A DNA stretch of 64,000 nucleotides from Chloroflexota bacterium (GTDB taxonomy: Bacteria; Chloroflexota; Limnocylindria; Limnocylindrales; CSP1-4). Every line of letters begins with the position of its first letter. Within the stretch, counting starts at the first letter, position 1. Below, piece by piece: positions 1-39,386 of this stretch. The stretch spans positions 45,032 through 109,031 of the forward strand of contig VBEC01000019.1 in the NCBI GenBank assembly GCA_005883615.1, given 5' to 3'. The notes beneath the pieces were generated by a model. That model was not told where the DNA came from, did not search any database, and was given only the letters and a program-made list of their open reading frames with translations. Position numbers and translations under genes: made by a program.

Positions 1-125
1 GGGTTCTGGCGGTCGAACAGAGTCGAAAATGCGGTCACCATCACTCGCCTGCCCGCGCCTGATACGGAGTAAGACGAGCCTCCGGCGTCGGCCGCCGTCG
101 GGCCTCCGGGTCTAAGCCATCCCCG

Positions 126-731
126 CTAATGCACGTACTCCGGGCGCCCAAGAGGCCGATACGTCTGGATGGTTAAGCCCCCGGAAGTGGTCCGCGAGCT
201 GACCAGATCGAGCGCGGTGTCCGGACCGGTATCGGGGAACAGCCGTGTGCCTTGGCCGAGGATGACGGGATAGATGAGCAGGTCGAACTGGTCGACCAGG
301 CCATTGGCGAGGAGCCATCGGACGAGGACACCGCTGCCGGGCACCAGCAAATCGCCGTCTTGCTGCGCCTTCAGATCACGGACGGCCGCGGCGACGTCGC
401 CGGTCAAGACACTCGTGCCCGCCCACTCCGGGTCGGTGAGGCTGGTCGATGCCACGTACTTGGGCCGGCTGTTCAGGGCGACGCCGATCGGCATCTTGGC
501 CATGTCGATCATCGCTCCCCAGGAGCGCGCGAAGATCTCGTACGTCCGCCGGCCGAAGAGGAACGCGGCCGCACCACCGTAGACCTGGTCGAGATAGTCT
601 CCGGTTTCCGTATCGACAAGTGGTGGCGCCCATCCGCCGCGGTCGAAACCGCCGCGGCGATCTTCGTCAGGTCCGCCCAACCCCTGCATCACGCCGTCCA
701 CCGAGACATTGGTCGTAATTGTCAACCTCAT
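126..731 (-). CDS. dihydrofolate reductase family protein (RibD C-terminal domain)
   Basis: 201-aa ORF starting MRLTITTNVSVDGVMQG with GRRTYE and PGSGVL motifs typical of RibD_C/DHFR-like proteins. It is a paralog of the genes at 1720 and 2574. Confidence 0.85.
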   Translation of the reverse strand: MRLTITTNVSVDGVMQGLGGPDEDRRGGFDRGGWAPPLVDTETGDYLDQVYGGAAAFLFGRRTYEIFARSWGAMIDMAKMPIGVALNSRPKYVASTSLTDPEWAGTSVLTGDVAAAVRDLKAQQDGDLLVPGSGVLVRWLLANGLVDQFDLLIYPVILGQGTRLFPDTGPDTALDLVSSRTTSGGLTIQTYRPLGRPEYVH

Positions 732-800
732 GGTTGTTCCTCTCCACTTCGTTGAGCCGGCCCGGTGGCCGAGACGATCGTTGCCTTTAGCTGTTAATCT

Positions 801-818
801 TACAACCATATGGTTGTA
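801..818. promoter_or_regulatory. perfect 18-bp palindrome TACAACCATATGGTTGTA overlapping the ArsR start codon; candidate ArsR/SmtB operator in the divergent promoter
   Basis: Exact inverted repeat read directly in the sequence. It sits between the divergent starts at 731 and 810 and includes the ATG at 810. Confidence 0.5.
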
Positions 819-1166
819 GCTCGCATCGCCGGACCGGAGGACCATGCCGATCGCGTCTTTCGGGCGTTGGGGCACCCCACCCGTCGAGACATCGTCCGCC
901 GGGCGATGAACGGGACGCTGTCGGTCTCCGGGTTGGCCCGCCTGTATCCGATGAGCACGACTGCCGTGCAGAAGCACGTGGCGGTCCTCGAGGAGGCCGG
1001 ACTCGTTCACCTGACGCGGCGCGGCCGTCAACAGCTCGTCCAGACCGAGATCGACACCATCGCCGAGGCGCACGCAATGCTCGCGGAGTTCGAGCGGCTG
1101 TGGCGCGGTCGACTCGACCGCATCGGCGACGTGCTCGCCGAACCAGCAGGAGGAGACCGGCCATGA
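810..1166 (+). CDS. ArsR/SmtB family transcriptional regulator
   Basis: 118 aa with the LGHPTRRDIV motif and a winged-HTH segment typical of ArsR-family metalloregulators. Confidence 0.9.
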   Translation: MVVARIAGPEDHADRVFRALGHPTRRDIVRRAMNGTLSVSGLARLYPMSTTAVQKHVAVLEEAGLVHLTRRGRQQLVQTEIDTIAEAHAMLAEFERLWRGRLDRIGDVLAEPAGGDRP

Positions 1167-1648
1167 CGGTGATCGCTGTGGACCGCGATCCGGTCGCGTT
1201 GACGCTCACGATCGTGGCTGAGTTCGATGCACGGGCGGAGCGGGTCTGGCAGGTGTGGGCCGACCCCCGCCAGCTGGAACGATGGTGGGGACCGCCGACC
1301 TATCCCGCCACCGTGGTCGACCACGATCTGACCGCCGGCGGCCGGGTCACCTACTACATGACCGGGCCGGACGGCGAAAAGCTCCACGGGTGGTGGCAGA
1401 TCATCTCGGTCGACCCACCCCGCTCGCTCGAGTTCGAGGACGGGTGCGGCCCGCCGAACGAGGAGCTACCGACCTATTCCGTCGGGGTTCGGCTCATCGA
1501 GACGCCCGAGAAGACCACGATGACGCTCACCTGCCGGTTCGCGTCCATCGCGGATATGGAGCAGCTGCTCGCCACGGGCAAGGAAGAGGGGATGAGGCTG
1601 GCCGTCGGACAGATCGACGGCATCCTTGCCACCGCTATCGGGTCCTGA
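1163..1648 (+). CDS. SRPBCC/AHSA1 (activator of Hsp90 ATPase homolog) domain protein
   Basis: Start MTVIAVD overlaps the ArsR stop by 4 nt. The RVWQVWADPRQLERWWGP signature of AHSA1-like proteins is present. ArsR-AHSA1 is a common gene pair. Confidence 0.8.
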   Translation: MTVIAVDRDPVALTLTIVAEFDARAERVWQVWADPRQLERWWGPPTYPATVVDHDLTAGGRVTYYMTGPDGEKLHGWWQIISVDPPRSLEFEDGCGPPNEELPTYSVGVRLIETPEKTTMTLTCRFASIADMEQLLATGKEEGMRLAVGQIDGILATAIGS

Positions 1649-1719
1649 TAGCGAGCCGGTCGCGCGACGTTCGGGACCGCCAGCTCAGGGCGCAGTGCAG
1701 CGAGAAGGGAACATCGACC

Positions 1720-2325
1720 ATGAAACTGACGACCACCACGCAGGTCTCGGTTGACGGAGTGATGCAGGGGCCCGGCGCACCAGTGGCCGGGGTAGCCGAG
1801 CGCGGCGCATTCGAGCGCGACGGCTGGGCCCACTTCGACACCGAAGCCGGGACGGTCATGGACGAGATCTACCAGCGCGCCGACGCGTTCCTGTTCGGGC
1901 GGCGGACCTACGAGATGTTCGCCGCCTCGTGGGGAGCGTGGCCAGATCCGGGCGACAGCCCGATCTGGACGGCGTTGCATACGAAGCCCAAGTATGTAGC
2001 GTCGACAACCCTCACCGAACCGCGCTGGGCGAACACGACCGTTCTCTCCGGTGACGTTGCTGCGGCCGTCGCCGAGCTGAAAGCCAGGCCGGGAGGCGAG
2101 CTGCAGGTGCACGGCAGCGGCGCCCTGTTCCCGTGGCTGCTCGACAACGAGCTCGCCGATGAGATGACCCTGTTCACCTTCCCCGTGGTCGTCGGCCAGG
2201 GCACGCGGCTATTCCCTGACACCGGCCGGGACAGGGCGCTCGAACTGGTCGACTCGCGGGCCACCCCGAGCGGTGTGACGATCCAGGTCTACCGGCCCGC
2301 CGGCCGCCCGCAGTATGCGACCTGA
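1720..2325 (+). CDS. dihydrofolate reductase family protein (RibD C-terminal domain)
   Basis: 201 aa starting MKLTTTTQVSVDGVMQG, colinear with the gene at 126-731. The longer ORF upstream is out-of-frame overlap with the AHSA1 gene. Confidence 0.85.
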   Translation: MKLTTTTQVSVDGVMQGPGAPVAGVAERGAFERDGWAHFDTEAGTVMDEIYQRADAFLFGRRTYEMFAASWGAWPDPGDSPIWTALHTKPKYVASTTLTEPRWANTTVLSGDVAAAVAELKARPGGELQVHGSGALFPWLLDNELADEMTLFTFPVVVGQGTRLFPDTGRDRALELVDSRATPSGVTIQVYRPAGRPQYAT

Positions 2326-2573
2326 CGTATGTGCCGGAGTTACTGAGAGTTGGCGATGGATGGGGAGGAATCAAGACCTGCGTATCGGCGTGCCACGCGC
2401 TTCTTTCCCCGCCGTGTCGCTGACCACGCTGATCTTCGCCAGCGTCTTGGCGTGATCAAGCCCTGGGCCGCATCCGAGGGCGGCCGGGCTCCACACGTTG
2501 AATGGCGATTAGCTTCGTCGTCGTTCCCAGTCTGTCTCTTCAAATCCGATCAACAGCACTAGAGGAGAACGTC

Positions 2574-3152
2574 ATGACCGCTACCTACACCTTCGACGTC
2601 TTCACCAGCCTCGACGGCTTCGGCGCCGCCGGCGGCAACTGGACCGGATACTGGGGCAAGCAAGGCCCCGAACTCCTCGACCACCGCCTCGCCTTGTACG
2701 GCGAAGAGCAGCGGATGGTCTTCGGGGCCAACACGTATCGGCTATTCGCGCAAATGATCGCCTCGAGCACCGAGGCGTCCGATGTGCGCGACCCATGGGT
2801 CACCCGGATGAGGAGCCTGCCGGCAACGGTGGTGTCGACCACGCTGCAAGGACCGCTCGACTGGCCGGACGCGACCATCGTGAGCGGTGACGCCGTCGAC
2901 GTCGTCGCCCGGCTCAAGGAGGAGTCCGTCGTGCCGTTGCGCTCGCACGGCAGCCTGTCGATGAACCGGGCGCTGATGGCCGCCGGTTTGGTCGACCGCG
3001 TCCAGGTAACGCTCTTCCCGGTGATCACCGGCCAGACCGGAGCGGACCCGATCTTCCAGGGTGCGGCCGACTTCGACCTCGAGCTGATCGAGACCCGGAC
3101 GCTCGACGGCCACACCCAAGAGCTCATCTATCGGCCCACCCTGCATGTCTGA
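2574..3152 (+). CDS. dihydrofolate reductase family protein (RibD C-terminal domain), third paralog
   Basis: Starts MTATYTFDVFTSLDGFGA and carries GANTYRLF and LRSHGSLSMNRAL motifs. It is the same fold family as the two upstream paralogs. Confidence 0.8.
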   Translation: MTATYTFDVFTSLDGFGAAGGNWTGYWGKQGPELLDHRLALYGEEQRMVFGANTYRLFAQMIASSTEASDVRDPWVTRMRSLPATVVSTTLQGPLDWPDATIVSGDAVDVVARLKEESVVPLRSHGSLSMNRALMAAGLVDRVQVTLFPVITGQTGADPIFQGAADFDLELIETRTLDGHTQELIYRPTLHV

Positions 3153-3320
3153 GCCCATACGTGCGCCCACACCCTCAAGCCGCGGTACCTGACCCGGAAG
3201 TTGCCTCTGACCGACATGCCGACCGGTCTCATGACAGCGCTGCAACGCGACTTGCTGATCGCCTCCTCGGTCGCCTCGGCGGTCGATGTAGACAACCCTC
3301 GCAATCCGCCCTTCATATCG

Positions 3321-4265
3321 TCACGATCGCTCGACCTGCACGACGACTTTGCCGCGGCGGCGTGCTGTCCGCCCGAATTCGTAGGCAGCCGCGGCGTCTT
3401 CAAGGGGGAACACTTCCGCCACCTCGACGCGTAGCCTGCCGTCATCCACGAGCCGGGCGAGCTCGATGAGCTGCGAGCGCTCGGGCTCGACGATGAAGAA
3501 TTCAGCGCTCAGGTCGCGCCCTTCCGGCAGCGTCACCGCAGGCGGGCCAGCGAGGCTGATCAAGCTGCCACCATCGTTCAGCACGCCAAGCGATGCCTCG
3601 GCGGTCCTCCCTCCGATGGGGTCGAGCACCACGTCGACGTCGCTGACGACCTCCTCGAACGGAGTGGCCTTGTAGTCGATCACCACATCAGCACCGAGGG
3701 AGCGCACGTACTCGATGTCCCCGGCGGAGGCAGTCGCCGTTACGCGAGCGCCGAGCGCCTTCGCGATCTGGACGGCGAAGGCGCCGACCCCGCCGGCTCC
3801 TCCATGCACGAGCACGTGGTTCCCGGGATGGACGTGCGCCTGCTCGGTGAACGCCTGCCAGGCCGTCAACGCCGACAATGGCAACGCCGCCGTCCGACTG
3901 TGATCGAGTGTGACGGGCTTCGGCGCCAGATCACGAGCCCGCACCGCTACGTAGTCCGCCGCCGCCCCGTCGTGATCGAACGGGACCAGTCCATAGACCT
4001 CCTCGCCGGCGACGACGTGGGTGACGCCGGGTCCCAGCTCTTCGACGACGCCCGAGACCTCGTGGGATGGGATCGTCGGGGTACGGTCGTGACCCTGGCG
4101 GTCGACCCATGTCTCGCTCCACTCCAGCTCCGTAGGTGTGATTCCTGCCGCGTGGACCCGGATCAACGCCTCGCCGGCTTGCGGCTCCGGCTTCGGGACA
4201 TCCTCGAGCTGCAGCTGTTCGGCTCCGCCGCGAGCATGCGCCCGCACGGCACGCATGGTTGTCAT
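3321..4265 (-). CDS. NADPH:quinone reductase / zinc-binding alcohol dehydrogenase (MDR) family oxidoreductase
   Basis: Starts MTTMRAVRAHARGGAEQLQLEDVP and has a GGAGGVG Rossmann motif, as in the Qor/MDR family. Confidence 0.85.
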   Translation of the reverse strand: MTTMRAVRAHARGGAEQLQLEDVPKPEPQAGEALIRVHAAGITPTELEWSETWVDRQGHDRTPTIPSHEVSGVVEELGPGVTHVVAGEEVYGLVPFDHDGAAADYVAVRARDLAPKPVTLDHSRTAALPLSALTAWQAFTEQAHVHPGNHVLVHGGAGGVGAFAVQIAKALGARVTATASAGDIEYVRSLGADVVIDYKATPFEEVVSDVDVVLDPIGGRTAEASLGVLNDGGSLISLAGPPAVTLPEGRDLSAEFFIVEPERSQLIELARLVDDGRLRVEVAEVFPLEDAAAAYEFGRTARRRGKVVVQVERS

Positions 4266-4507
4266 CGACACACCCCTTCCCATCCGAGTCGATCATGCGG
4301 CTCGCGCCTTGACGCCGTCCACCGGCCTCACCAATGGACGCGTCCGCTTCGTCAGGCGATTGCGATTGGTCGACACGTCACTTGGAAGTCGGCGAGCGTG
4401 AGTCGGCAGTCGCTGCCAGCCGTGGTCAAGTCGTCTGGCAGCGCCATGTACCGTGATCTCCACGGGAGCGGGTCCACCCCGGTTGTCGGCTCCAAGATCG
4501 GCCGCAG

Positions 4508-5488
4508 GTGACAGCCATGCTACGGATGAAGGCCGCCGGCATCGACGCATTCGGCGGCGAGGTGCAGCTGCTCGAACTCGCCGCACCACCACCGCCCGCC
4601 CCGGACGAGGTCGTGATCTCGGTACGCGCAGCCGGGGTCGGGAACTGGGACGAGATCGTCCGGGTCGGCGGCTGGGACGTCGGACGTCGGCCGCCGCTGG
4701 CCCTTGGGGTTGAAGCAGCTGGGGTCGTTGCCGCGGTCGGCGAGGACGTGACGAGCTTCGCACCGGGCGACGAGGTGCTCACCCATCCACTGCCGCTGCG
4801 ACACCAGGGCGCGTGGGCGGAGCGGCTCGTCGCTCCGGCCGCGCTCGTCGCGCGGAAGCCGGCCCCCGTCCCTTGGGCGGCGGCGGCCGCCTTCGCGGTG
4901 CCGGCACTCACCGCCGACCAGGCGCTTACCGAGGCCGCCCCTGTCCGGCCAGGGGAATGGCTTCTCGTCCACGGCGCCGGCGGCGTCACCGGAGAGCTCG
5001 CCGTCCAGCTCGCGGTCGCGCGGGGCGCGACTGTCGTCGCGACGGCGGGCCCCTCGAGCGCGGCGCGCATTCGCGGCGACGGGGCACATGCCGTATTCGA
5101 CTATCACGATCCCGAGTGGCCGACCCTCGTGCGAAATGCAACTCCAGGTGGACGTGGAGTTGACGCCGTAGTGAATGCGGCCCGCGGCGGGGCGGTGACC
5201 GCGCTGCAGACTGTCGCCGACGGCGGCCATCTGGCGACGATCACTGGCGATCCGCCGTCACCCGAACGAGGAGTCACGGTCGCGAACATCTACGTCCGCG
5301 CCGACGGTGCTCGGCTCGCCGCCCTGGTGGCGGCACTCGCGGATGGGCTGTTGTCGCTCCACGTGGGAGCGACATTCGCGCTCGCAGACGCGGCCACGGC
5401 GCTCCAGGCCGCCGTCACCGGCCGCGCCGCCGGCGCGACCGTCCTTACGCTCGAAGGGATCTCAAGCGACGCGGCGGACCACAAGTAA
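4508..5488 (+). CDS. quinone oxidoreductase-like MDR family protein
   Basis: AGIDAFGGEVQLLE N-terminus and HGAGGVTGELAVQLA nucleotide-binding motif. An alternative start lies at MKAAG (4526). Confidence 0.8.
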   Translation: MTAMLRMKAAGIDAFGGEVQLLELAAPPPPAPDEVVISVRAAGVGNWDEIVRVGGWDVGRRPPLALGVEAAGVVAAVGEDVTSFAPGDEVLTHPLPLRHQGAWAERLVAPAALVARKPAPVPWAAAAAFAVPALTADQALTEAAPVRPGEWLLVHGAGGVTGELAVQLAVARGATVVATAGPSSAARIRGDGAHAVFDYHDPEWPTLVRNATPGGRGVDAVVNAARGGAVTALQTVADGGHLATITGDPPSPERGVTVANIYVRADGARLAALVAALADGLLSLHVGATFALADAATALQAAVTGRAAGATVLTLEGISSDAADHK

Positions 5489-5922
5489 GGCGAATGCGCC
5501 GCGAGACACACTCGCTCCGCGAGGCGGCTGCTTCGGCGTACAGCGGGAGGCGACAGGCGTCGATGTACGACGCGCTCGCTGGCCCGAGATTCTCCATCTG
5601 ATTGCAATCAGCGCCCGATACGGAATCTGGCGCACCAAGCTCGGCGGGGGAGTATGCGCCCGACAGGATCCGAGCGCGCCATACCAATCGATCCGCGCGG
5701 GTCGACTCGTCGAGAGTCCCCGCGTATGACGGCTCGTCGGTGGCCCGGAGGTTTGACCGACGAAATCCGCCTCGGCTCTCGGAGGTGTTCCCTGCTTGTT
5801 ATCGCGCCGACGATAAGGCTGATAGTTACGTCCGACGACGCACCGGCGCAGGACTCGTCCGAGCCCCTCCTGGAGACCGGGACTGGACCCTTATCCGGAC
5901 CACTATGGATCCTGTTTCTTGT

Positions 5923-5975
5923 GTCTCATGCGTCTCTTGGATGTACCCGGTGAACGTGGCTGAGACGCATGAGAC
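5923..5975. promoter_or_regulatory. stem-loop: perfect 14-bp inverted repeat GTCTCATGCGTCTC / GAGACGCATGAGAC with a 25-nt loop, in the lower-GC leader upstream of the Rph-like gene
   Basis: Read directly in the sequence. It lies in a 690-bp noncoding region whose GC is visibly below the window average. Confidence 0.4.
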
Positions 5976-5988
5976 GGTTTACCCGGAG

Positions 5989-6006
5989 TCCGGTATGCGG
6001 TACCAA
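5989..6006. repeat. 18-bp direct repeat TCCGGTATGCGGTACCAA (copy 1)
   Basis: An exact second copy is at 9584-9601. The two copies bracket the Rph-like gene and the ABM-like gene. Confidence 0.6.
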
Positions 6007-6178
6007 ATTCCTTCGTTTACGTTCCGCCGGGTCGAGATGCGATCCGCCTGAACCCTTATCGTCGACCATCGCGTCGATGCCGGTGGGTCCATATCTCATG
6101 GACCATCACATCGATGGGATCGGATGTGCAAGGCACTTCGCCAGTCGTCGCTGAGTCCGGTTGACCTAGGCTTCACGG

Positions 6179-8713
6179 ATGGCCGACCAGCTGGTGCTCT
6201 CGCTCGAGGAGATCCGAGCAGCCGACGCGGCGATCGCGGGCGGTAAGGGCGCCAACCTCGGGGAGCTCATCGCAGCGGGATTCTCCGTGCCGCTCGGCTT
6301 CATCCTGACCACGGCCGCGTACGGAGTCGCCGCGAGGTCGGCGAGGGTCGATCCATCCGATCCGACGTCCGCCGCGGACCGACTCCGCGCCGGAGACGTG
6401 CCACGGGCGGTGGCGACCGCAGCCCTCGATGCCTACCGATCGATGGGCGGTGGGAAGGTCGCGGTGAGGTCGTCCGCGACGGCCGAGGATCTGCCGGGGG
6501 CGAGCTTCGCCGGACAGCAGGACACGTTCCTGAACGTGGAGGGCGACCAGTCGCTCATCGATGCCATCCGCCGGTGCTGGGCGTCACTCTGGAACGAACG
6601 GGCAGTCGCTTACCGTCGCGAACGCGGGCTCGACGATCAAAGCGTGGCGCTCGCGGTCGTCGTTCAGCGGATGGTTGACGCCGCCGCGGCGGGCGTCATG
6701 TTCACTGCCCACCCGATCAACGGCAGGCGGGGGACGGCCGTCATCGATGCCGCGCCCGGCCTGGGCGACGCCGTCGTCTCCGGTGCGGTCGATCCCGACC
6801 ACAACGTCGTCGACGTGTCAGCTGGCCAGATCACGGAGCGTGTGGTCAGACATGAGCGACCCGTGATGAGCGATGCACTTATCGTGGAGCTCGCCGAAAT
6901 CGGACGCCGCATCGAGCGCCGACTCGGTGGTCCGCAGGACGTCGAGTTCGCGGTGGATGGCGACGAGCGACTGTGGATCGTCCAGGCGCGCCCGATCACA
7001 AACTTGTATCCGCTGCCTGACGAGGTCCCGTCGGACACGCGGGTGTACTTCTCGATCAGCGTCGCGCAGGGGTATTTCGCGCCGATCACCCCGATGGGGA
7101 TGGAGGCGTTCCTCGCGATCGGCCGGCGCGTAGGCGCGACGTTCGCAGACGATCGGACCGGTTCCACGATCGCACGGTCACCAGTGGTGGTCGCGGGCGA
7201 GCGTCCCTTCGTCGACGTCACGGCCGTGCTGCGGGACCCGGTCGGACGCGACTTCCTCGAGCGGCTGAGCGCCATCGGCGAGGCGCGGAGCTCGGTCGTG
7301 TTCCGGAAGCTCAGCACCGACCCTCGTTTTGCAGCTCGTCGTGGCCGACGGGCCGGCTCGGTGCGGCGCATCCTGCCTGTCATCCTGCGATCGCGCATTC
7401 CCGTCCGTGCGCTGCGGTTATGGGTGTCGCCCGATCGATCGCGTGCGCGGCTGATCCGCGATATCGAGCAGGGGACACGCATCGACATCCCTGCCGGCGC
7501 GACCGCCTCCGAGCGCCTCGATGCGGTCGAGGAGTTCATGCGGGTCACGCTGCCGTTCGTCTTTCCGCGCTTGCTCCCCGTCGTCGTTGCCGGCATGGTG
7601 TCGCACGTGGCGGTTGGCCGGTTGCTCGGTCGTCGAGCCGGTCCCGAGGAGCTCATGGCCCTCAGTCGTGGGCTGCCGCACAACCCCACCACCAAGATGG
7701 ACCTGGCGCTCTGGGAACTGACGAGACACATTCGCTCGGACGCCGGGTCCCGCGAAGTCCTCGCGAGCCGGACGGCCGCGGAGCTCGCCGAGGCCTATCA
7801 GGCGGGGCAGCTCCCGCCGGTCGTGCAGACCAGCCTATCCGCGTTCCTCGACCGCTACGGCTTCCGATCCGTGGGCGAGATCGACTTGGGGGTGGCCCGC
7901 TGGTCTGAGGACCCCACGCATCTCCTGGGTGTGATCTCGAATTATCTCCTGCTTGCCGACGATGCCCTCGCACCGGACGCGCACTTCCGGCGCGGTGCGC
8001 GCGAAGCCGAGGCGACCGCCACGGCGTTGCTTAGTCGGGTCCGTGGACCGCGGCGCCTGCTTCTGAGATTTCTGTTAAGCCGGGCGCGTGCTCTGATGGG
8101 ATCGCGCGAGCTGCCGAAGTACATGTTGATCCGGAACGTGTTCACGCCCATCCGGGCGATGCTGCGACCGGTGGGTGCCGAGCTCGCCGCGACCGGGCGC
8201 GTGACCGTACCCGAGGACATCTACTTCCTCACCCTCGCGGAGGCCCGCGGGGCGATCGCCGGCGCTGACATGCGCGAGACCGTCGCGGCACATCGCGCGG
8301 AGTACGGCCGCGAGATCGCGCGTCGTCACGTCCCACGTGTGCTCCTGTCCGACGGCACCGACGCGGAGGTCGCGCTTGTCGAGCCGGTGGAGGGGGGCTT
8401 GCGCGGATCTCCGGCTTCACCGGGGTTGGTGACGGGCAAGGCCAGGGTCATCCGCTCGCCGCAGGGCGCTCACCTCGAGCCCGGGGAGATCCTCGTCGCC
8501 TCATCGACCGATCCCGGCTGGATGCCGCTCTTCCTCACCGCTGGCGGGCTAGTGATGGAGATGGGCGGCATGATGTCCCATGGCGCCGTGGTCGCCCGGG
8601 AGTACGGGATCCCCGCAGTCGTGGGTGTCGCCGGCGCGACCGAGCGGATCATGACCGGCGACTCGCTCACGGTCGACGGCACCGCCGGCGTCGTGTCGAT
8701 GGCCGCGACCTGA
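6179..8713 (+). CDS. PEP-utilizing enzyme with rifampicin phosphotransferase (Rph)-like architecture; often annotated phosphoenolpyruvate synthase
   Basis: 844 aa. The N-terminus (VGGKGANLGEL, VPLGFILTTAAY) is an ATP-grasp/PPDK_N domain. The mobile phospho-His domain (GGMMSHGAVVAREYGIPAVVGV) sits at the extreme C-terminus, and there is no C-terminal PEP-binding TIM barrel. This domain order is that of Rph rather than of true PEP synthase. Confidence 0.85.
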   Translation: MADQLVLSLEEIRAADAAIAGGKGANLGELIAAGFSVPLGFILTTAAYGVAARSARVDPSDPTSAADRLRAGDVPRAVATAALDAYRSMGGGKVAVRSSATAEDLPGASFAGQQDTFLNVEGDQSLIDAIRRCWASLWNERAVAYRRERGLDDQSVALAVVVQRMVDAAAAGVMFTAHPINGRRGTAVIDAAPGLGDAVVSGAVDPDHNVVDVSAGQITERVVRHERPVMSDALIVELAEIGRRIERRLGGPQDVEFAVDGDERLWIVQARPITNLYPLPDEVPSDTRVYFSISVAQGYFAPITPMGMEAFLAIGRRVGATFADDRTGSTIARSPVVVAGERPFVDVTAVLRDPVGRDFLERLSAIGEARSSVVFRKLSTDPRFAARRGRRAGSVRRILPVILRSRIPVRALRLWVSPDRSRARLIRDIEQGTRIDIPAGATASERLDAVEEFMRVTLPFVFPRLLPVVVAGMVSHVAVGRLLGRRAGPEELMALSRGLPHNPTTKMDLALWELTRHIRSDAGSREVLASRTAAELAEAYQAGQLPPVVQTSLSAFLDRYGFRSVGEIDLGVARWSEDPTHLLGVISNYLLLADDALAPDAHFRRGAREAEATATALLSRVRGPRRLLLRFLLSRARALMGSRELPKYMLIRNVFTPIRAMLRPVGAELAATGRVTVPEDIYFLTLAEARGAIAGADMRETVAAHRAEYGREIARRHVPRVLLSDGTDAEVALVEPVEGGLRGSPASPGLVTGKARVIRSPQGAHLEPGEILVASSTDPGWMPLFLTAGGLVMEMGGMMSHGAVVAREYGIPAVVGVAGATERIMTGDSLTVDGTAGVVSMAAT

Positions 8714-8989
8714 CCGATTGGACCATCGACAGAGCGATGGGCATGCGCTCCACCTCACTGTGGCCGGAGTGTCCATCGCCTCGCGCCCCTCCGAGCATCC
8801 CCGCGCCGTTCATGAACTCACGTTCCAGACGGCAACTGCCTCTCGGCTGTCGCGGAGACTCAACGGGACTGCACCGTGGATGGCGACACTACCACTTGGT
8901 TCCGCGTTGATTGGCTCAGCGAGCTCCGGCCATTGTCCTCGCTCGTGGGTCCGATCAATTTCCCGATCTTCGGGGAAGGAGGCAGAGCG

Positions 8990-9397
8990 ATGACCGAGCC
9001 GGTGGTCTACATCAGCACGTGGAAGATCAAGGAGGGCAAGTTTGACGCCTACGCGCGCTTCCACGAGCGCCTCGCGAATACCGTCTGGGACCTCGAGCCG
9101 CGGGTCGCGGCATTTCTGGCGTTCGCCAACGACGACGGCACCGAGGTGACTGGCATCCATGTCTTTTCGGACGCCGATGCGCTCGATCGGCACGTGGGCG
9201 TCCTCGCCGAACGGATGGGTGTCCTGGCTGAAGACATGGGCGTTGTTACGGACCTGCTCGGACCCGGCCACATCGACGTCTATGGCACGCGACCCGAACA
9301 GGCGCTGGCGATGGACCGGCCACTTGAAGACTCCGGGCTGCCGTTCACGGTCAAGACGCGGTTCGTCGGTGGCTTCACACGCGGACGAGACGAGTGA
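8990..9397 (+). CDS. hypothetical protein, possibly a dimeric alpha/beta-barrel (ABM-like) protein
   Basis: A strong SD (GGAAGGAGG) lies 7 nt upstream of the ATG. The YISTWKIKEGKFDAY pattern resembles the ABM/Dabb fold. Function is unknown. Confidence 0.55.
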   Translation: MTEPVVYISTWKIKEGKFDAYARFHERLANTVWDLEPRVAAFLAFANDDGTEVTGIHVFSDADALDRHVGVLAERMGVLAEDMGVVTDLLGPGHIDVYGTRPEQALAMDRPLEDSGLPFTVKTRFVGGFTRGRDE

Positions 9398-9583
9398 CGG
9401 CGATGTTCGCCTCCGAGTCCGGTGATGGCTACGAGGCGCTGACGAGGTTCACCGACGGCAACCCCGGAGTGCCATTTCGCGGACGCCGATGCTATCGGAG
9501 CCTCCGAACCGAAGGCGCTGAGATTGGGATCAGGCCCGTCCCAGAATGAACGCGGTGGGCAGCAAGACCCGATTGGATGAGCA

Positions 9584-9601
9584 TCCGGTATGCGGTACCA
9601 A
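9584..9601. repeat. 18-bp direct repeat TCCGGTATGCGGTACCAA (copy 2)
   Basis: Exact match to 5989-6006. It lies in the 475-bp intergenic region before the amidohydrolase gene. Confidence 0.6.
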
Positions 9602-9873
9602 CCTCGCGCCTCCGAGGACCGCGTCGAGATGGGCCATCGCCTGGGTCTGGAGGGTGGGCAGGGCGTGGCTGTAGCGATCGCTGTGCGCCCGTGAAGCGAC
9701 GCCTCGGACTCCGAGTGTGGCGGTCCGATGGACCGATTTCGGGGCAGCCGATCGTTCCCGAAACGTTGCCACGTCAACCTACCCGCTAGCATGGGCTCGG
9801 CCATGCGGAGGAGCATTTCGATCCGGCGCGAAACGTCCATGAGCGCCCGCTGCCGACTTTTTCCGGGCGACCG

Positions 9874-11097
9874 ATGATGCCGCTGATCCTCGCCAACGCT
9901 CAGGTCGTTCACGGTGACCCGACCGTGGCACCCCGCCTCACCGACATCCTCTTGAGAGATGGACGCATTGCCGCGGTCGGCGAACGGCGCACGTTCGATG
10001 CCACCGATGCGGAGGTGCTGGACTTGACTGGGCGGGCTCTCCTGCCCGGTCTTATCGATCTGCACGTTCACCTGTGCCTGACAGGGGCGCCGCGCTCGGA
10101 TGAGCTGTACCGGACCGAGGCGCCTGAGCGGCTCATCGCACGGATGGTGGGCCTGGCCCAACGCCACCTTCATGCCGGCGTGACCACGATCAGGGATTTG
10201 GGGGGCCCCGAGCCCGGCATCTTCGTCGTCCGCGACGCCATCGCCGACGGGCTCGTCGAAGGTCCGCGCGTTCTCGCGGCCGGGCTGGTTGTGACGACAA
10301 CGGACGGTCACGGAAGCTGGATCGGCGCCATCGCCGACGACCTGGCGGGTATCCAGGTCGCGGTGAACGGTCGGATCGACTCGGGCGCCGACGCGATCAA
10401 GATCATTTCGACAGGCGGCGTCCACACTCGGACCTCAGACCTCATGACCGTTCAGTACTCGGAGGAAGAACTGCGCGCAGGCGTCCACGCGGCCCACGCT
10501 CGCGGGCGAACGGTGGCCACGCATGCATCGAATCCGCGGGGGATGCAGAACGCCATCCGTGCCGGCGTGGACACCATCGAGCATGGCGTTTTCCTCGACG
10601 ACGAGACGGCTGATCTCATGGCCCGTCGCGGCACGACGTTCGTCCCGACTCTCGTCGCGACCCAGCTCTTCGAACCGCGGGCCGATCATCCCGAGATCCC
10701 GGACTACGTTCGGGAGAAGGCGGCCGTCACGGTCCCGGCGCACCGCGACAATTTCCCCCGCGCAGTGCACGCGGGCGTCACCATCGCGGCCGGAACTGAC
10801 GCGGGCAGCACCTTCGTGGATCACGGGCTGGTCGCGCTGGAACTCGAAGCGCTGACTCGCTTCGGTCTCAGTCCGCTGGAAGCGATTGCGGCGGGCACAC
10901 GCAACGCGGCTCGCGTGATCGGCCTCGACGACGAGATCGGCACGGTCGACGTCGGCAAGGCGGCGGACCTCCTGGTCGTCGACGGAGATCCCACCGAGAG
11001 AATTGCGAATCTGCGCAACGTCGGTCTGGTGGTGCGATCGGGTCGAGTCGTGCATTCGCGCTGGTCGGACGTGGCCGTCGGCGCTAGGTCGACTTGA
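9874..11097 (+). CDS. amidohydrolase family metal-dependent hydrolase (imidazolonepropionase/prolidase-like)
   Basis: LPGLIDLHVHL metal-binding motif, DLGGP and GTDAG motifs, and a C-terminal LLVVDGDP. A paralog is at 59678. Confidence 0.85.
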   Translation: MMPLILANAQVVHGDPTVAPRLTDILLRDGRIAAVGERRTFDATDAEVLDLTGRALLPGLIDLHVHLCLTGAPRSDELYRTEAPERLIARMVGLAQRHLHAGVTTIRDLGGPEPGIFVVRDAIADGLVEGPRVLAAGLVVTTTDGHGSWIGAIADDLAGIQVAVNGRIDSGADAIKIISTGGVHTRTSDLMTVQYSEEELRAGVHAAHARGRTVATHASNPRGMQNAIRAGVDTIEHGVFLDDETADLMARRGTTFVPTLVATQLFEPRADHPEIPDYVREKAAVTVPAHRDNFPRAVHAGVTIAAGTDAGSTFVDHGLVALELEALTRFGLSPLEAIAAGTRNAARVIGLDDEIGTVDVGKAADLLVVDGDPTERIANLRNVGLVVRSGRVVHSRWSDVAVGARST

Positions 11098-37940: not shown

Positions 37941-39386
37941 CTACGAGCTCAGGTACTTGATGATGATGTCCTGGCAGCCCTTGACCGCAGCGGCGTGGGC
38001 CTTGTCCGCCGCATACGTCCCGTCGATCATCTTGGCGATGACCTCGTTGAACACCGGGGTGGTGTCGTACGGGGTCGACCATGGGTTGGTCTGGCCCTTG
38101 TTCTGCAGCGTATAGACCGGCTGCAGCGGCTGCGCCTTGATGACGTCGGGGTCAGTCGAGAGGGACGTGCGCGCGACCGGATAGAGCACCAGCGCGCCCG
38201 TGCTGTCCTTCACCGTAGTCGCTGCCGCCTTGCCGATCTCCTTGCTGAACGTGGCCTTCGCCCAACTCCAGCAGGCGTTGGCATTCTTGGAGAACTTGCT
38301 GACGCCGAGGCCGTCGGGACCGCCCGTGGAGCCGGTGCTGCCTGAAGCGTAACCCGGCATCTGGCGGACGCCGTGCTTCGCCGAGAATTGGGCCATGTCG
38401 CCTGTCAGCACCGGGCTCTCGCTCTCCCGGATCGTCGCGACGTTGCCTTGACCGAAAAGCTTGTACGCGTCGTGCTCGTTCGTGATGTTCATGTACTTGG
38501 GATCCCAGAACCCGCTCTTGAATCCCTCTTCGATCAAAGAGAAGACCTGCTTGCCCATGTCGTTGTCGAACCCGACCTGGGTGAAGTCGGGGTTGAACAT
38601 CGGCTGGCCCGTGGAATTCCAGATGTACGTGAAGTAGAGCTGCGCGAACAGGATCGCCTGGGTCGCCAGCCACGGCTGGACGCACGGGATGATGCCCGCG
38701 GCCTTGAACTTCGGAGCGAGCTTGAAGAGCGCCGGATAGTTGTCCGGTGGATTCTCCGGATCCTCGCCTATCTTCTGGAACAGGCTCTTGTTCCAGCCCC
38801 ACACTGCCGGGCTGTCGTACAGGGGCAACGCGCGCAGCATGCCGTCGGGGGTGGTGAGATCCTTCTTGGAGTTGTCGAAGAAGTCGCTGAGATCGCCGAA
38901 CACGTCCTCCGTCACCGGCAGCAGGAGGCGCGCGCCGAACTTCGGGATGTAGCCGTAAGCAGCGGTTGTGTACATCATGTCCCAGGAGGAATCCTGGGTC
39001 GCGATGATGCCGGCCTGCTTGATCTGTTTCTGGGCGAAGTCGACGTTGTTCTCCTTCGCGTCGCCACCGGTCGCCGTCTTCCACGCGGCCGTCCCTGCGT
39101 CGAGCCACGGGATCATGTAGCCGCCGGTGAAGTTCTGGAGGGTGACGCCGGCCCAGCTCTCGGATGGGACGGGCGAGGGGCTTGCGGGCGCTGCGGACGC
39201 CGACGCGGCGGCCGAAGCGGCCGACGATGGCGACGAACTCGGCGACGCTGTCGAGGTCCCACAGGCCGCGAGGAACGCGGCGCCGCCCGCGAGCAAGGTT
39301 CCCCGAAGGACCTCACGCCGGGTCAGCGTGCGCTCGAGCAGCGACTGGCCCAAGTCGGCCTCAGACGAACGAATTACATCCGCCAT
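37941..39386 (-). CDS. ABC transporter substrate-binding protein (family 1 solute-binding lipoprotein with a Tat-like signal)
   Basis: TRREVLRGTLLAGGAAFLAAC twin-arginine/lipobox leader, followed by an S/A-rich linker and an SBP fold. Confidence 0.85.
   Translation of the reverse strand: MADVIRSSEADLGQSLLERTLTRREVLRGTLLAGGAAFLAACGTSTASPSSSPSSAASAAASASAAPASPSPVPSESWAGVTLQNFTGGYMIPWLDAGTAAWKTATGGDAKENNVDFAQKQIKQAGIIATQDSSWDMMYTTAAYGYIPKFGARLLLPVTEDVFGDLSDFFDNSKKDLTTPDGMLRALPLYDSPAVWGWNKSLFQKIGEDPENPPDNYPALFKLAPKFKAAGIIPCVQPWLATQAILFAQLYFTYIWNSTGQPMFNPDFTQVGFDNDMGKQVFSLIEEGFKSGFWDPKYMNITNEHDAYKLFGQGNVATIRESESPVLTGDMAQFSAKHGVRQMPGYASGSTGSTGGPDGLGVSKFSKNANACWSWAKATFSKEIGKAAATTVKDSTGALVLYPVARTSLSTDPDVIKAQPLQPVYTLQNKGQTNPWSTPYDTTPVFNEVIAKMIDGTYAADKAHAAAVKGCQDIIIKYLSS

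Follow-up and report, generated by a model that had tools for sequence, protein, structure and literature searches.

A putative RPH-superfamily dikinase on an integrase-less segment of a probable decayed tRNA-Glu island in a Chloroflexota bacterium

The closest described relative of the enzyme discussed here is RPH-Lm, the three-domain rifampin phosphotransferase of Listeria monocytogenes (structures 5FBS, 5FBT, 5FBU and 5HV1; PMC4844700), in a superfamily that also holds phenol and hydroxyphenylethanone kinases and prodiginine ligases (PMC12167813). The closest described genomic setting is that of the Dehalococcoides ssrA islands, which lie in tandem downstream of one small-RNA gene, are bounded by ~20-bp direct repeats of its 3′ end, and in about half of the cases have no integration module, these being proposed as cis-mobilizable or fixed (McMurdie et al., 2011, PMC3146451). 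We analysed a 64,000-nucleotide stretch of DNA from an uncultured soil Chloroflexota bacterium (contig VBEC01000019.1, positions 45,032 to 109,031; hereafter the window), in which a gene for an 844-residue protein, at 6179-8713, stands between two copies of an 18-nucleotide direct repeat. The evidence makes it probable that this protein is a dikinase of the RPH superfamily and that the repeats are attachment (att) cores, copied from the end of tRNA-Glu, within a decayed composite island of which the dikinase segment is an integrase-less remnant.

Islands that grew in tandem from the 3′ end of a small-RNA gene, by accretion of integrative elements, and then decayed are well described; ours conforms to them, and nothing in our findings is mechanistically surprising. 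With the Dehalococcoides ssrA islands it shares the phylum, the tandem layout and a short conserved motif just upstream of each repeat; it differs in target, tRNA-Glu(CUC) and not ssrA, in recombinase, a tyrosine integrase (PF00589) in place of a CcrB-like serine recombinase, and in cargo, detoxification or resistance-like genes in place of reductive dehalogenases. In the tycheposon tRNA islands of Prochlorococcus serial integration pushes older elements outward (Hackl et al., bioRxiv 10.1101/2020.12.28.424599), and partial tRNAs, fragmented integrases and scattered cargo modules recur there as they do here, whereas the replication module and hallmark genes of tycheposons were not seen in our island, which belongs to soil Limnocylindria. 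Cis-mobilizable elements (CIMEs) related to the integrative conjugative and mobilizable elements of Streptococcus similarly consist of a segment with attL/attR-type sites and no integrase of its own; here, in contrast, the arms are eroded and excision products were not found. Integron cassette arrays are alike only in carrying small single-gene segments in arrays: the repeated element here ends in a tRNA 3′ end and has arm-type repeats, and the recombinases are ordinary PF00589 integrases beside the core. What distinguishes the island from these precedents is its tRNA-Glu(CUC) target, its tyrosine integrase and its host class, and a literature search found nothing linking Limnocylindria with small-RNA-gene islands of this kind.

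The features that carry this reading are the following.

5845 to 5988, plus strand: conserved attP-type P arm (“class 1”), from profile search and blastn
5989 to 6006, plus strand: direct repeat 1, putative att core, matching the last 17 nucleotides of tRNA-Glu(CUC)
6007 to 6060, plus strand: P′-arm-like remnant, a hairpin-like stretch followed by AACCCTTATC
6179 to 8713, plus strand: gene of the putative RPH-superfamily dikinase, 844 residues, with ATP-grasp domain, Rph-type substrate-binding domain and C-terminal phospho-histidine swivel domain
9547 to 9583, plus strand: weak, diverged P-arm remnant (TGAACGCGG...)
9584 to 9601, plus strand: direct repeat 2, second copy of the putative att core
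9611 to 9679, minus strand: remnant of a tyrosine integrase, its last 23 codons (DRYSHALPTLQTQAMAHLDAVLG, with the catalytic-tyrosine motif inside), from translation

The domain content of the 844-residue protein is that of RPH-Lm. Pfam assigns residues 19-275 to PPDK_N and 767-837 to the PEP-utilizers swivel domain, finds no PEP-utilizers_C TIM barrel in the protein, and a precomputed Rph_4th domain is on record for exactly this sequence. The swivel domain contains the motif GGMMSHGAVVAREYGIPAVVG, with the phospho-histidine at residue 801 (His801), so that the preliminary description was right to place this motif at the extreme C-terminus. A sequence search of the Protein Data Bank (PDB) returned a full-length match to RPH-Lm only (5FBS, 5HV1; E 4e-108), with phosphoenolpyruvate (PEP) synthases and pyruvate, phosphate dikinases (PPDK) matching piecemeal. 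An AlphaFold2 model built from 27 homologues (pLDDT 81.8, pTM 0.79) superposes on the RPH-Lm structures over ~880-900 aligned columns (TM score 0.74, E 1e-44), and on PEP synthase 2OLS or PPDK in the ATP-grasp and swivel domains only (query-normalised score, TMq, 0.24-0.28). Because the fold match to RPH-Lm is full-length and that to PEP synthase partial, the protein is not a PEP synthase, and the Rph domain order first read from its translation is borne out by Pfam, NCBIfam scores, PDB match and model alike.

Homologues number in the thousands, and the names on the source records vary between phosphoenolpyruvate synthase, pyruvate, water dikinase and rifampicin phosphotransferase; the first of these was thus correctly expected to be a common annotation, and for 6179-8713 it is wrong. 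The nearest proteins, up to 92% identical, come from soil metagenomes and from metagenome-assembled genomes (MAGs) named Chloroflexi, Candidatus Limnocylindria or Limnocylindrales, and the protein stands for a large clade of the RPH superfamily in soil Chloroflexota. In contrast to RPH-Lm, its host is a Chloroflexota bacterium and not a Firmicute or an Actinobacterium.

All ten of the ATP-site and phosphate-transfer residues of RPH-Lm that we compared, including the catalytic histidine (K22, R117, T136, E297, Q337, T523, R666, E667, K670 and H825), are conserved, as K23, R97, T116, E256, Q297, T504, R643, E644, K647 and H801. From this conservation and the precedent of RPH-Lm, the ATP-grasp domain would move the β-phosphate of ATP onto His801, the swivel domain would then swing to the central substrate-binding domain, and Arg643, Glu644, Lys647, Gln297 and Thr504 would hold the phosphate in place while it passes to a hydroxyl of the bound small molecule. 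The same use of an ATP-grasp domain and a swivel histidine for phosphotransfer to a small-molecule hydroxyl or carbonyl is known from the phenol kinases HpeHI, CreHI and PpsAB and the prodiginine ligases PigC/RedH/HapC (PMC12167813). The phenol kinases are two-component enzymes, their substrate-binding component HpeH being only ~20% identical to RPH, unlike the window protein, which is a single chain and clearly nearer to RPH-Lm; the NCBIfam models for PigC/RedH score 362-372 bits, in fragments and far under cutoff. The protein is best called a putative single-chain small-molecule dikinase of the RPH superfamily.

The second part of our reading concerns the 18-mer TCCGGTATGCGGTACCAA. As first described, it is present exactly once in each flank of the gene, at 5989-6006 and 9584-9601, both on the plus strand; no further copy with up to three mismatches exists in the 64-kb window. 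Its chance expectation is 0.01 copies, and two or more copies arose in 0 of 100 shuffles. Seventeen of its 18 nucleotides are the 3′ end of tRNA-Glu(CUC), from the 3′ half of the T-stem through the 3′ strand of the acceptor stem and the discriminator A to the encoded CCA; across copies the tRNA gene ends in ...CACCGGTTCGAA followed by TCCGGTATGCGGTACCA. ARAGORN detects no tRNA in the window itself. Two contigs from the same population reach further to the left (compared sequences carry L numbers): L129, which is 100% identical to window 1-1518, and L128, collinear with window 1-7410 at 99.2-99.8% identity. On each, a plus-strand tRNA-Glu(CUC) gene stands to the left of the window's first letter, at about -714 to -638 in window coordinates, 6.6 kb upstream of the first repeat.

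The search for further copies that had been proposed for the 18-mer was empty within the window and rich outside it. Scanning one genome per species, we retrieved at least 120 stretches, nearly all from MAGs of Limnocylindria or other Chloroflexota; by alignment of their flanks, at least 83 copies end an intact tRNA-Glu(CUC) and at least 55 stand without a tRNA. A few matches are unrelated: those in L029 and L100 encode part of a CPVCGTK zinc ribbon, and those in L016 and L112 fall in coding DNA of other kinds. Six contigs with tRNA-Glu or arm and core of the Limnocylindria type (L091, L096, L103, L123, L065 and L076) are binned as Solirubrobacterales, Allosphingosinicella, Steroidobacteraceae or Nocardioidaceae; these names probably result from bin contamination rather than from transfer between phyla. 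By its sequence relations, the 18-mer appears to serve a family of tyrosine-integrase elements as their att core and is tied in this way to the limits of the dikinase segment. It thus does mark recombination junctions, as had been supposed, although it is not private to this segment, being the 3′ end of tRNA-Glu(CUC) in many Limnocylindria genomes.

The first core is preceded by an arm that recurs in other genomes. A P-arm profile made from 21 copies elsewhere matches the window at 5845-6006 (E 2.4e-43) and otherwise recovers the second core only, without its neighbouring DNA, while blastn finds copies of the arm at 76-85% identity in ~25 loci. The consensus comprises two CCCTTATC-type repeats, three direct GTCTCATG repeats, an inverted GAGACGCATGAGAC and ...TTCACCGGGAA, and then the core. 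In the window the direct repeats are present as GTCTC(A)TG three times, and the inverted repeat is perfect over 14 nucleotides (5923-5936 and 5962-5975, GAGACGCATGAGAC). The CCCTTATC motif also occurs beyond cores, between core and integrase genes. Arm-type sites thus lie on both sides of the core in the layout of a lambda-type attP, where they would serve to bind protein. A structured RNA or DNA hairpin in the arm, prompted by an apparent compensatory change (TGCGTCTC/GAGACGCA vs TGTGTCTC/GAGACACA), was considered and rejected. When the two sides were compared in 22 copies (for example L109, L082 and L078; window 5900-5975), their C/T and G/A variants agreed in ~12 and disagreed in ~9, and therefore the repeats are more likely putative protein-binding sites than a conserved stem.

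Traces of arms also lie on the inner sides of both cores. The DNA to the right of the first core, 6007-6060, belongs to a region 85% identical over 75 nucleotides to the DNA right after the intact tRNA-Glu of L025, with L105 and L121 similar. To the left of the second core, the remnant at 9547-9583 is ~78% identical over ~55 nucleotides, core included, to the P arms of L102, L043, L086, L089 and L027. Ten bases to the right of this core lies the integrase remnant, which is 83% identical to the integrase C-termini of L086, L108 and L019; these have the same placement and direction next to tRNA-Glu or to cores that stand without a tRNA. More distant relatives, full or partial, adjoin the same core in L012, L040, L076 and L027, and the full-length integrase of L076 has a Phage_integrase domain (PF00589, E 1.6e-23) and a SAM-like N-terminal domain. 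Most of the relatives are truncated too, and therefore the islands are largely decayed. Neither an intact integrase of this family nor a further arm copy is present in the 64-kb window.

The composite island starts at the tRNA gene, outside the window, and is made up of at least three or four segments in tandem, the dikinase segment among them. In order, the locus comprises a hydrolase gene, tRNA-Glu, in some strains a segment with an APH(6) gene, a segment that we call A, the first arm and core and the P′-like remnant, and then the dikinase gene, a small open reading frame (orf135), the weak arm remnant, the second core, the integrase remnant and the amidohydrolase gene onward. Segment A, 6.6 kb long and beginning at tRNA-Glu, is represented in the window as follows.

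1 to 5488 (beginning at tRNA-Glu outside the window): segment A, with genes for a Big_5 protein, three RibD_C paralogues, an SRPBCC protein and two alcohol dehydrogenase (ADH)/quinone reductases

Gene calls on identical contigs show no integrase in segment A. Its three RibD_C (dihydrofolate-reductase-like) paralogues lie within 3 kb (126-3152) and are followed by two divergent ADH/quinone reductase genes, an unusual local amplification of genes for small reductases. The APH(6) segment, 2.06 kb long and ending in the same arm and core, encodes a member of the APH(6)/hydroxyurea-kinase family (PF04655, E 8e-15). In L127 (4729-6790) and L131 (5097-7158) it separates tRNA-Glu from segment A, at a place just outside the left end of the window; L128 and L129, otherwise 99-100% identical, lack it. 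At its junctions a P′ region of ~260-290 nucleotides is duplicated, and the tRNA-proximal copy of the deleted form equals the proximal copy of the full form.

The gaps on either side of the two-gene segment had been described as noncoding and of lower GC, which is accurate for one side more than for the other. The left gap (5489-6178, 690 nucleotides) has 62.0% GC overall and as little as 58-59% near the repeat, while the window as a whole averages 67.7% (standard deviation 2.5); it includes one of the two lowest 500-nucleotide GC stretches of the window; the right gap (9398-9873, 476 nucleotides), at 65.8%, is in the normal range. The second-lowest such stretch (59.8%) lies within 38401-39000. 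Neither gap contains a convincing gene, although the right one holds the 23-codon integrase remnant on the minus strand. No PIN or Fic remnant was found in 5489-5880, no Rfam family at gathering thresholds in the 64 kb or at E<=5 within 5400-9900, and no promoter or terminator consensus in the flanks beyond shuffled expectation.

Comparison across Candidatus Limnocylindria identifies tRNA-Glu(CUC) as a class-wide integration hotspot. Most species share an α/β-hydrolase gene on the upstream side of the tRNA. A DUF1611-like gene stands 51-170 nucleotides past the tRNA in ~21 species, an empty site; in 11 it follows insertions of 0.6-4.9 kb, and in others it lies past the 8-kb block covered. Arm and core form same-orientation arrays with a spacing of 1.5-3.5 kb, with three copies in L109 and five downstream of the tRNA on contig CAWFBQ010000002.1. 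Cargo of these arrays includes cupin, α/β-hydrolase and epoxide hydrolase genes, LuxR and TetR regulators, an ABC ATPase, and PIN and Fic toxins. We propose that lambda-type tyrosine-integrase elements would have integrated repeatedly at tRNA-Glu(CUC) across the class. In the window genome, serial integrations and subsequent decay, with loss of integrases, would have left tRNA-Glu, segment A (6.6 kb), P arm and core (5845-6006), the dikinase segment (3.6 kb), the second core and the integrase remnant.

Several observations weigh against this proposal. The DUF1611-like gene, which is the ancestral right flank, lies outside the window, so the outer end of the island is not delimited by it. The responsible recombinase is predicted from relatives, the window having no intact integrase of the family. 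Differences among strains in the APH(6) segment suggest homologous recombination within the ~260-nucleotide repeated arm, which fits them better than core-to-core excision. The P arm is nearly gone at the second core and the P′ arm is down to ~55 nucleotides at the first, and with arms so eroded the limits of the dikinase segment could therefore stem partly from deletions and not from a single integration. For the enzyme, the labels “rifampicin phosphotransferase” on Joint Genome Institute (JGI) records and the resistance-like neighbouring genes would fit a true Rph equally well.

The strongest competing explanation is one of function: that the gene encodes a true rifamycin-inactivating phosphotransferase, acting on the C21 hydroxyl, and is a resistance gene on a mobile island. 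Besides the full-length homology and fold match solely to RPH-Lm, it draws on the APH(6) cassette, the RibD_C genes and further detoxification-type genes of the island, and on the automatic annotation of many homologues as rifampicin phosphotransferase. The phosphate-handling residues are all kept, and Stogios et al. predict that clades beyond their experimentally validated clade A may act on rifamycins where these residues persist (PMC4844700). Such residues do not discriminate for Rph, because non-Rph clades keep them too (PMC4844700), and a distant clade-N homologue gave no resistance when tested (PMC4844700).

The sequence scores point away from Rph. The protein reaches 511.4 bits with NF041857, the Rph equivalog model (cutoff 999), and 360.5 with NF000283, the antimicrobial resistance model (cutoff 1700); its top-scoring NCBIfam model is a non-Rph subfamily, PRK06241.1-3, which at 581 is also below its cutoff of 945. 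A comparison with characterised Rph and PpsA models, proposed at the outset, therefore sides with the Rph architecture and at the same time leaves the protein under the Rph equivalog cutoffs. In the HMMER alignment with RPH-Lm, which comprises 794 aligned columns, 36.5% of residues are identical, short of the >42% that marks validated clade A (PMC4844700); by domain, the identity is 45.7% in the ATP-grasp, 27.1% in the RIF (rifamycin)-binding and 53.1% in the swivel domain.

The drug-binding site differs further. In the pairwise HMMER alignment 1 of the 11 residues of RPH-Lm in contact with rifampin is identical (V368), and the other ten are replaced (Q336A, Y351F, T354I, P356G, A357S, M359V, L387I, L478F, F479V and M673L). 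Several of the changes are conservative, and both hydrogen-bonding residues, Q336 and Y351, are among those lost. Insertions of 12 and 5 residues, 17 in all, lie between T354 and M359, in the loop with P356, A357 and M359, which cradles the naphthoquinone. The putative substrate pocket is therefore, by this alignment, unlike that of validated Rph enzymes, and the protein falls short on every curated measure of Rph to which it could be put. Rifamycin inactivation, raised as a possibility when the gene was first described, is one that we now regard as doubtful, and with it the identification as a true Rph. The substrate of what we continue to read as an RPH-superfamily dikinase is possibly a rifamycin or other ansamycin, and another secondary metabolite or phenolic compound is at least as likely. 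Scoring such genes as rifamycin resistance in resistome surveys is premature.

A second question is whether the DNA between the cores is a unit and whether it moves. Between 5989 and 9584 it holds the dikinase gene and orf135 and no integrase. Three further features bear on its make-up.

6095 to 6178, plus strand: conserved 5′ leader or promoter region travelling with the dikinase gene; homology to L001, L133 and L135 starts at 6095-6116
8714 to 8790, plus strand: conserved 3′ region with small hairpins, travelling with the dikinase gene; homology to L001 and L135 ends at 8779-8790
8990 to 9397, plus strand: orf135, 135 residues, putative ABM (dimeric α/β-barrel) fold, from profile and model

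Near copies of the dikinase gene, with 89-92% protein and 90-94% nucleotide identity, are found in three unrelated contexts: in L001 (1963-4643), flanked to one side by BTAD and PDZ genes and to the other by LGT and DsbD; in L133 (9917-12540), adjoining a PIN/MazE pair; and in L135 (2430-5091), where its neighbours are an IS110 transposase and a tRNA-Arg(CCG) whose 3′ end it faces. Homology is limited to window 6095/6116 through 8718/8790, and therefore the dikinase moves with ~80 nucleotides on each side, without orf135 and without cores; it is an accessory gene that has often changed place. At 6086-6104, 75 nucleotides upstream of the start codon, is a perfect 19-bp palindrome, GGTCCATATCTCATGGACC. 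It has the length of the actinobacterial rifamycin-associated element (19 bp), crosses the border of the conserved leader and has no counterpart in L001.

The ABM-like character first ascribed to orf135 holds at the level of fold. The profile of its family matches the putative ABM structure 3kkf (E=2.8e-4), and its AlphaFold model (pLDDT 88) aligns with the ABM-fold proteins MupZ, SnoaB and 3kkf at TM scores of 0.6-0.75, although no Pfam family matches above threshold (ABM E=0.12). The family is small, with 32 relatives and no Pfam model of its own, and homologues with 88% and 69% identity sit elsewhere without a dikinase. The proposal that dikinase and ABM-like gene form one unit fails on these separate occurrences: the segment is a mosaic of two unrelated accessory genes, integrase-less and apparently fixed in the species.

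That the segment is instead a still-mobile, cis-mobilizable element, its cores recombined in trans by an integrase from elsewhere, is unlikely in our judgement, more so than rifamycin activity of the enzyme. Its attractions are the intact 17/18-nucleotide cores on both sides in direct orientation, the arm remnants on their inner sides, the many small integrase-less segments ending in the same arm and core in related genomes, the variation of the neighbouring APH(6) segment among strains, and the precedent of the CIME-like Dehalococcoides ssrA islands (PMC3146451). Against mobility, an identical amidohydrolase gene is found on 10 contigs of the same species and the dikinase segment lies upstream of it in 10 of 10. 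An exact search of 241 M metagenome records found neither excised-site nor circle junctions, absence from assemblies being weak evidence. The arms around the segment are badly eroded, in the contexts examined its two genes travel elsewhere neither together nor with att cores, and the APH(6) junctions fit homologous recombination. The original suggestion of an inserted or excisable module is thus upheld in its first half, the DNA between the cores having arrived by insertion, and finds no sign of excision for its second. The adjacency of quinone reductase and amidohydrolase genes that was to be sought in relatives was seen in no genome or contig examined.

It is highly improbable that the 18-mer is a regulatory or operator sequence, or a chance repeat before two genes, with no role in recombination. 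Both copies are indeed intergenic and upstream of plus-strand genes, 173 nucleotides from the dikinase and 273 from the amidohydrolase, but this reading is essentially refuted by the identity with the 3′ end of tRNA-Glu, whose gene lies 6.6 kb upstream, and by the att arms and integrase remnant on its flanks. The chance expectation already given, the lack of Rfam or promoter consensus matches at the repeats, and the start of the conserved dikinase leader at 6095, well downstream of the first repeat, tell against it as well. The identification of the protein as a genuine PEP synthase (PpsA), despite such names as phosphoenolpyruvate synthase or pyruvate, water dikinase on near homologues and the ATP-grasp and swivel domains common to both, is refuted by domain content and has practically no probability left, since the histidine domain is C-terminal, the PEP-utilizers_C TIM barrel is absent, TIGR01418 scores 330.8 against a cutoff of 739.75 and in 3 fragments, and the fold match to 2OLS covers ~425 columns at TMq 0.28.

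With the 18-mer read as the att core of a tRNA-Glu island, the att core, arm and integrase family of a hotspot are now defined for an abundant uncultured class of soil bacteria, which is a help in marking off the flexible parts of Limnocylindria MAGs and explains assembly breaks there. A bolder idea, which we offer with little confidence, is that the site between the hydrolase gene, tRNA-Glu(CUC) and the DUF1611-like gene works as an integron-like platform, at which integrase-less segments of 1.5-4 kb would be captured, stacked and exchanged by one tyrosine integrase that they share and that acts in trans. Segments at the site often carry a single gene (APH(6), the Rph-like dikinase, PIN or Fic toxins, hydrolases, cupin) and end in an arm of ~130-160 nucleotides and a 17-nucleotide core. 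If the idea is true, the locus would be a lineage-wide reservoir of antibiotic-modifying kinases in soil.

Two smaller observations concern the cargo of other tRNA-Glu islands. The one match to Rph next to tRNA-Glu in other species is a fragmentary gene of the family in L033 (3595-5784), in two pieces of ~39-41% identity a few kb from a tRNA-less core, which may be a second Rph-like gene in such an island. Genes for PIN_3 and Fic/DOC toxins end 5-45 nucleotides before arm and core in L082 (2409-2819 and 4481-4873) and L078 (6995-7411), which suggests that addiction modules are located at the arm end of these elements.

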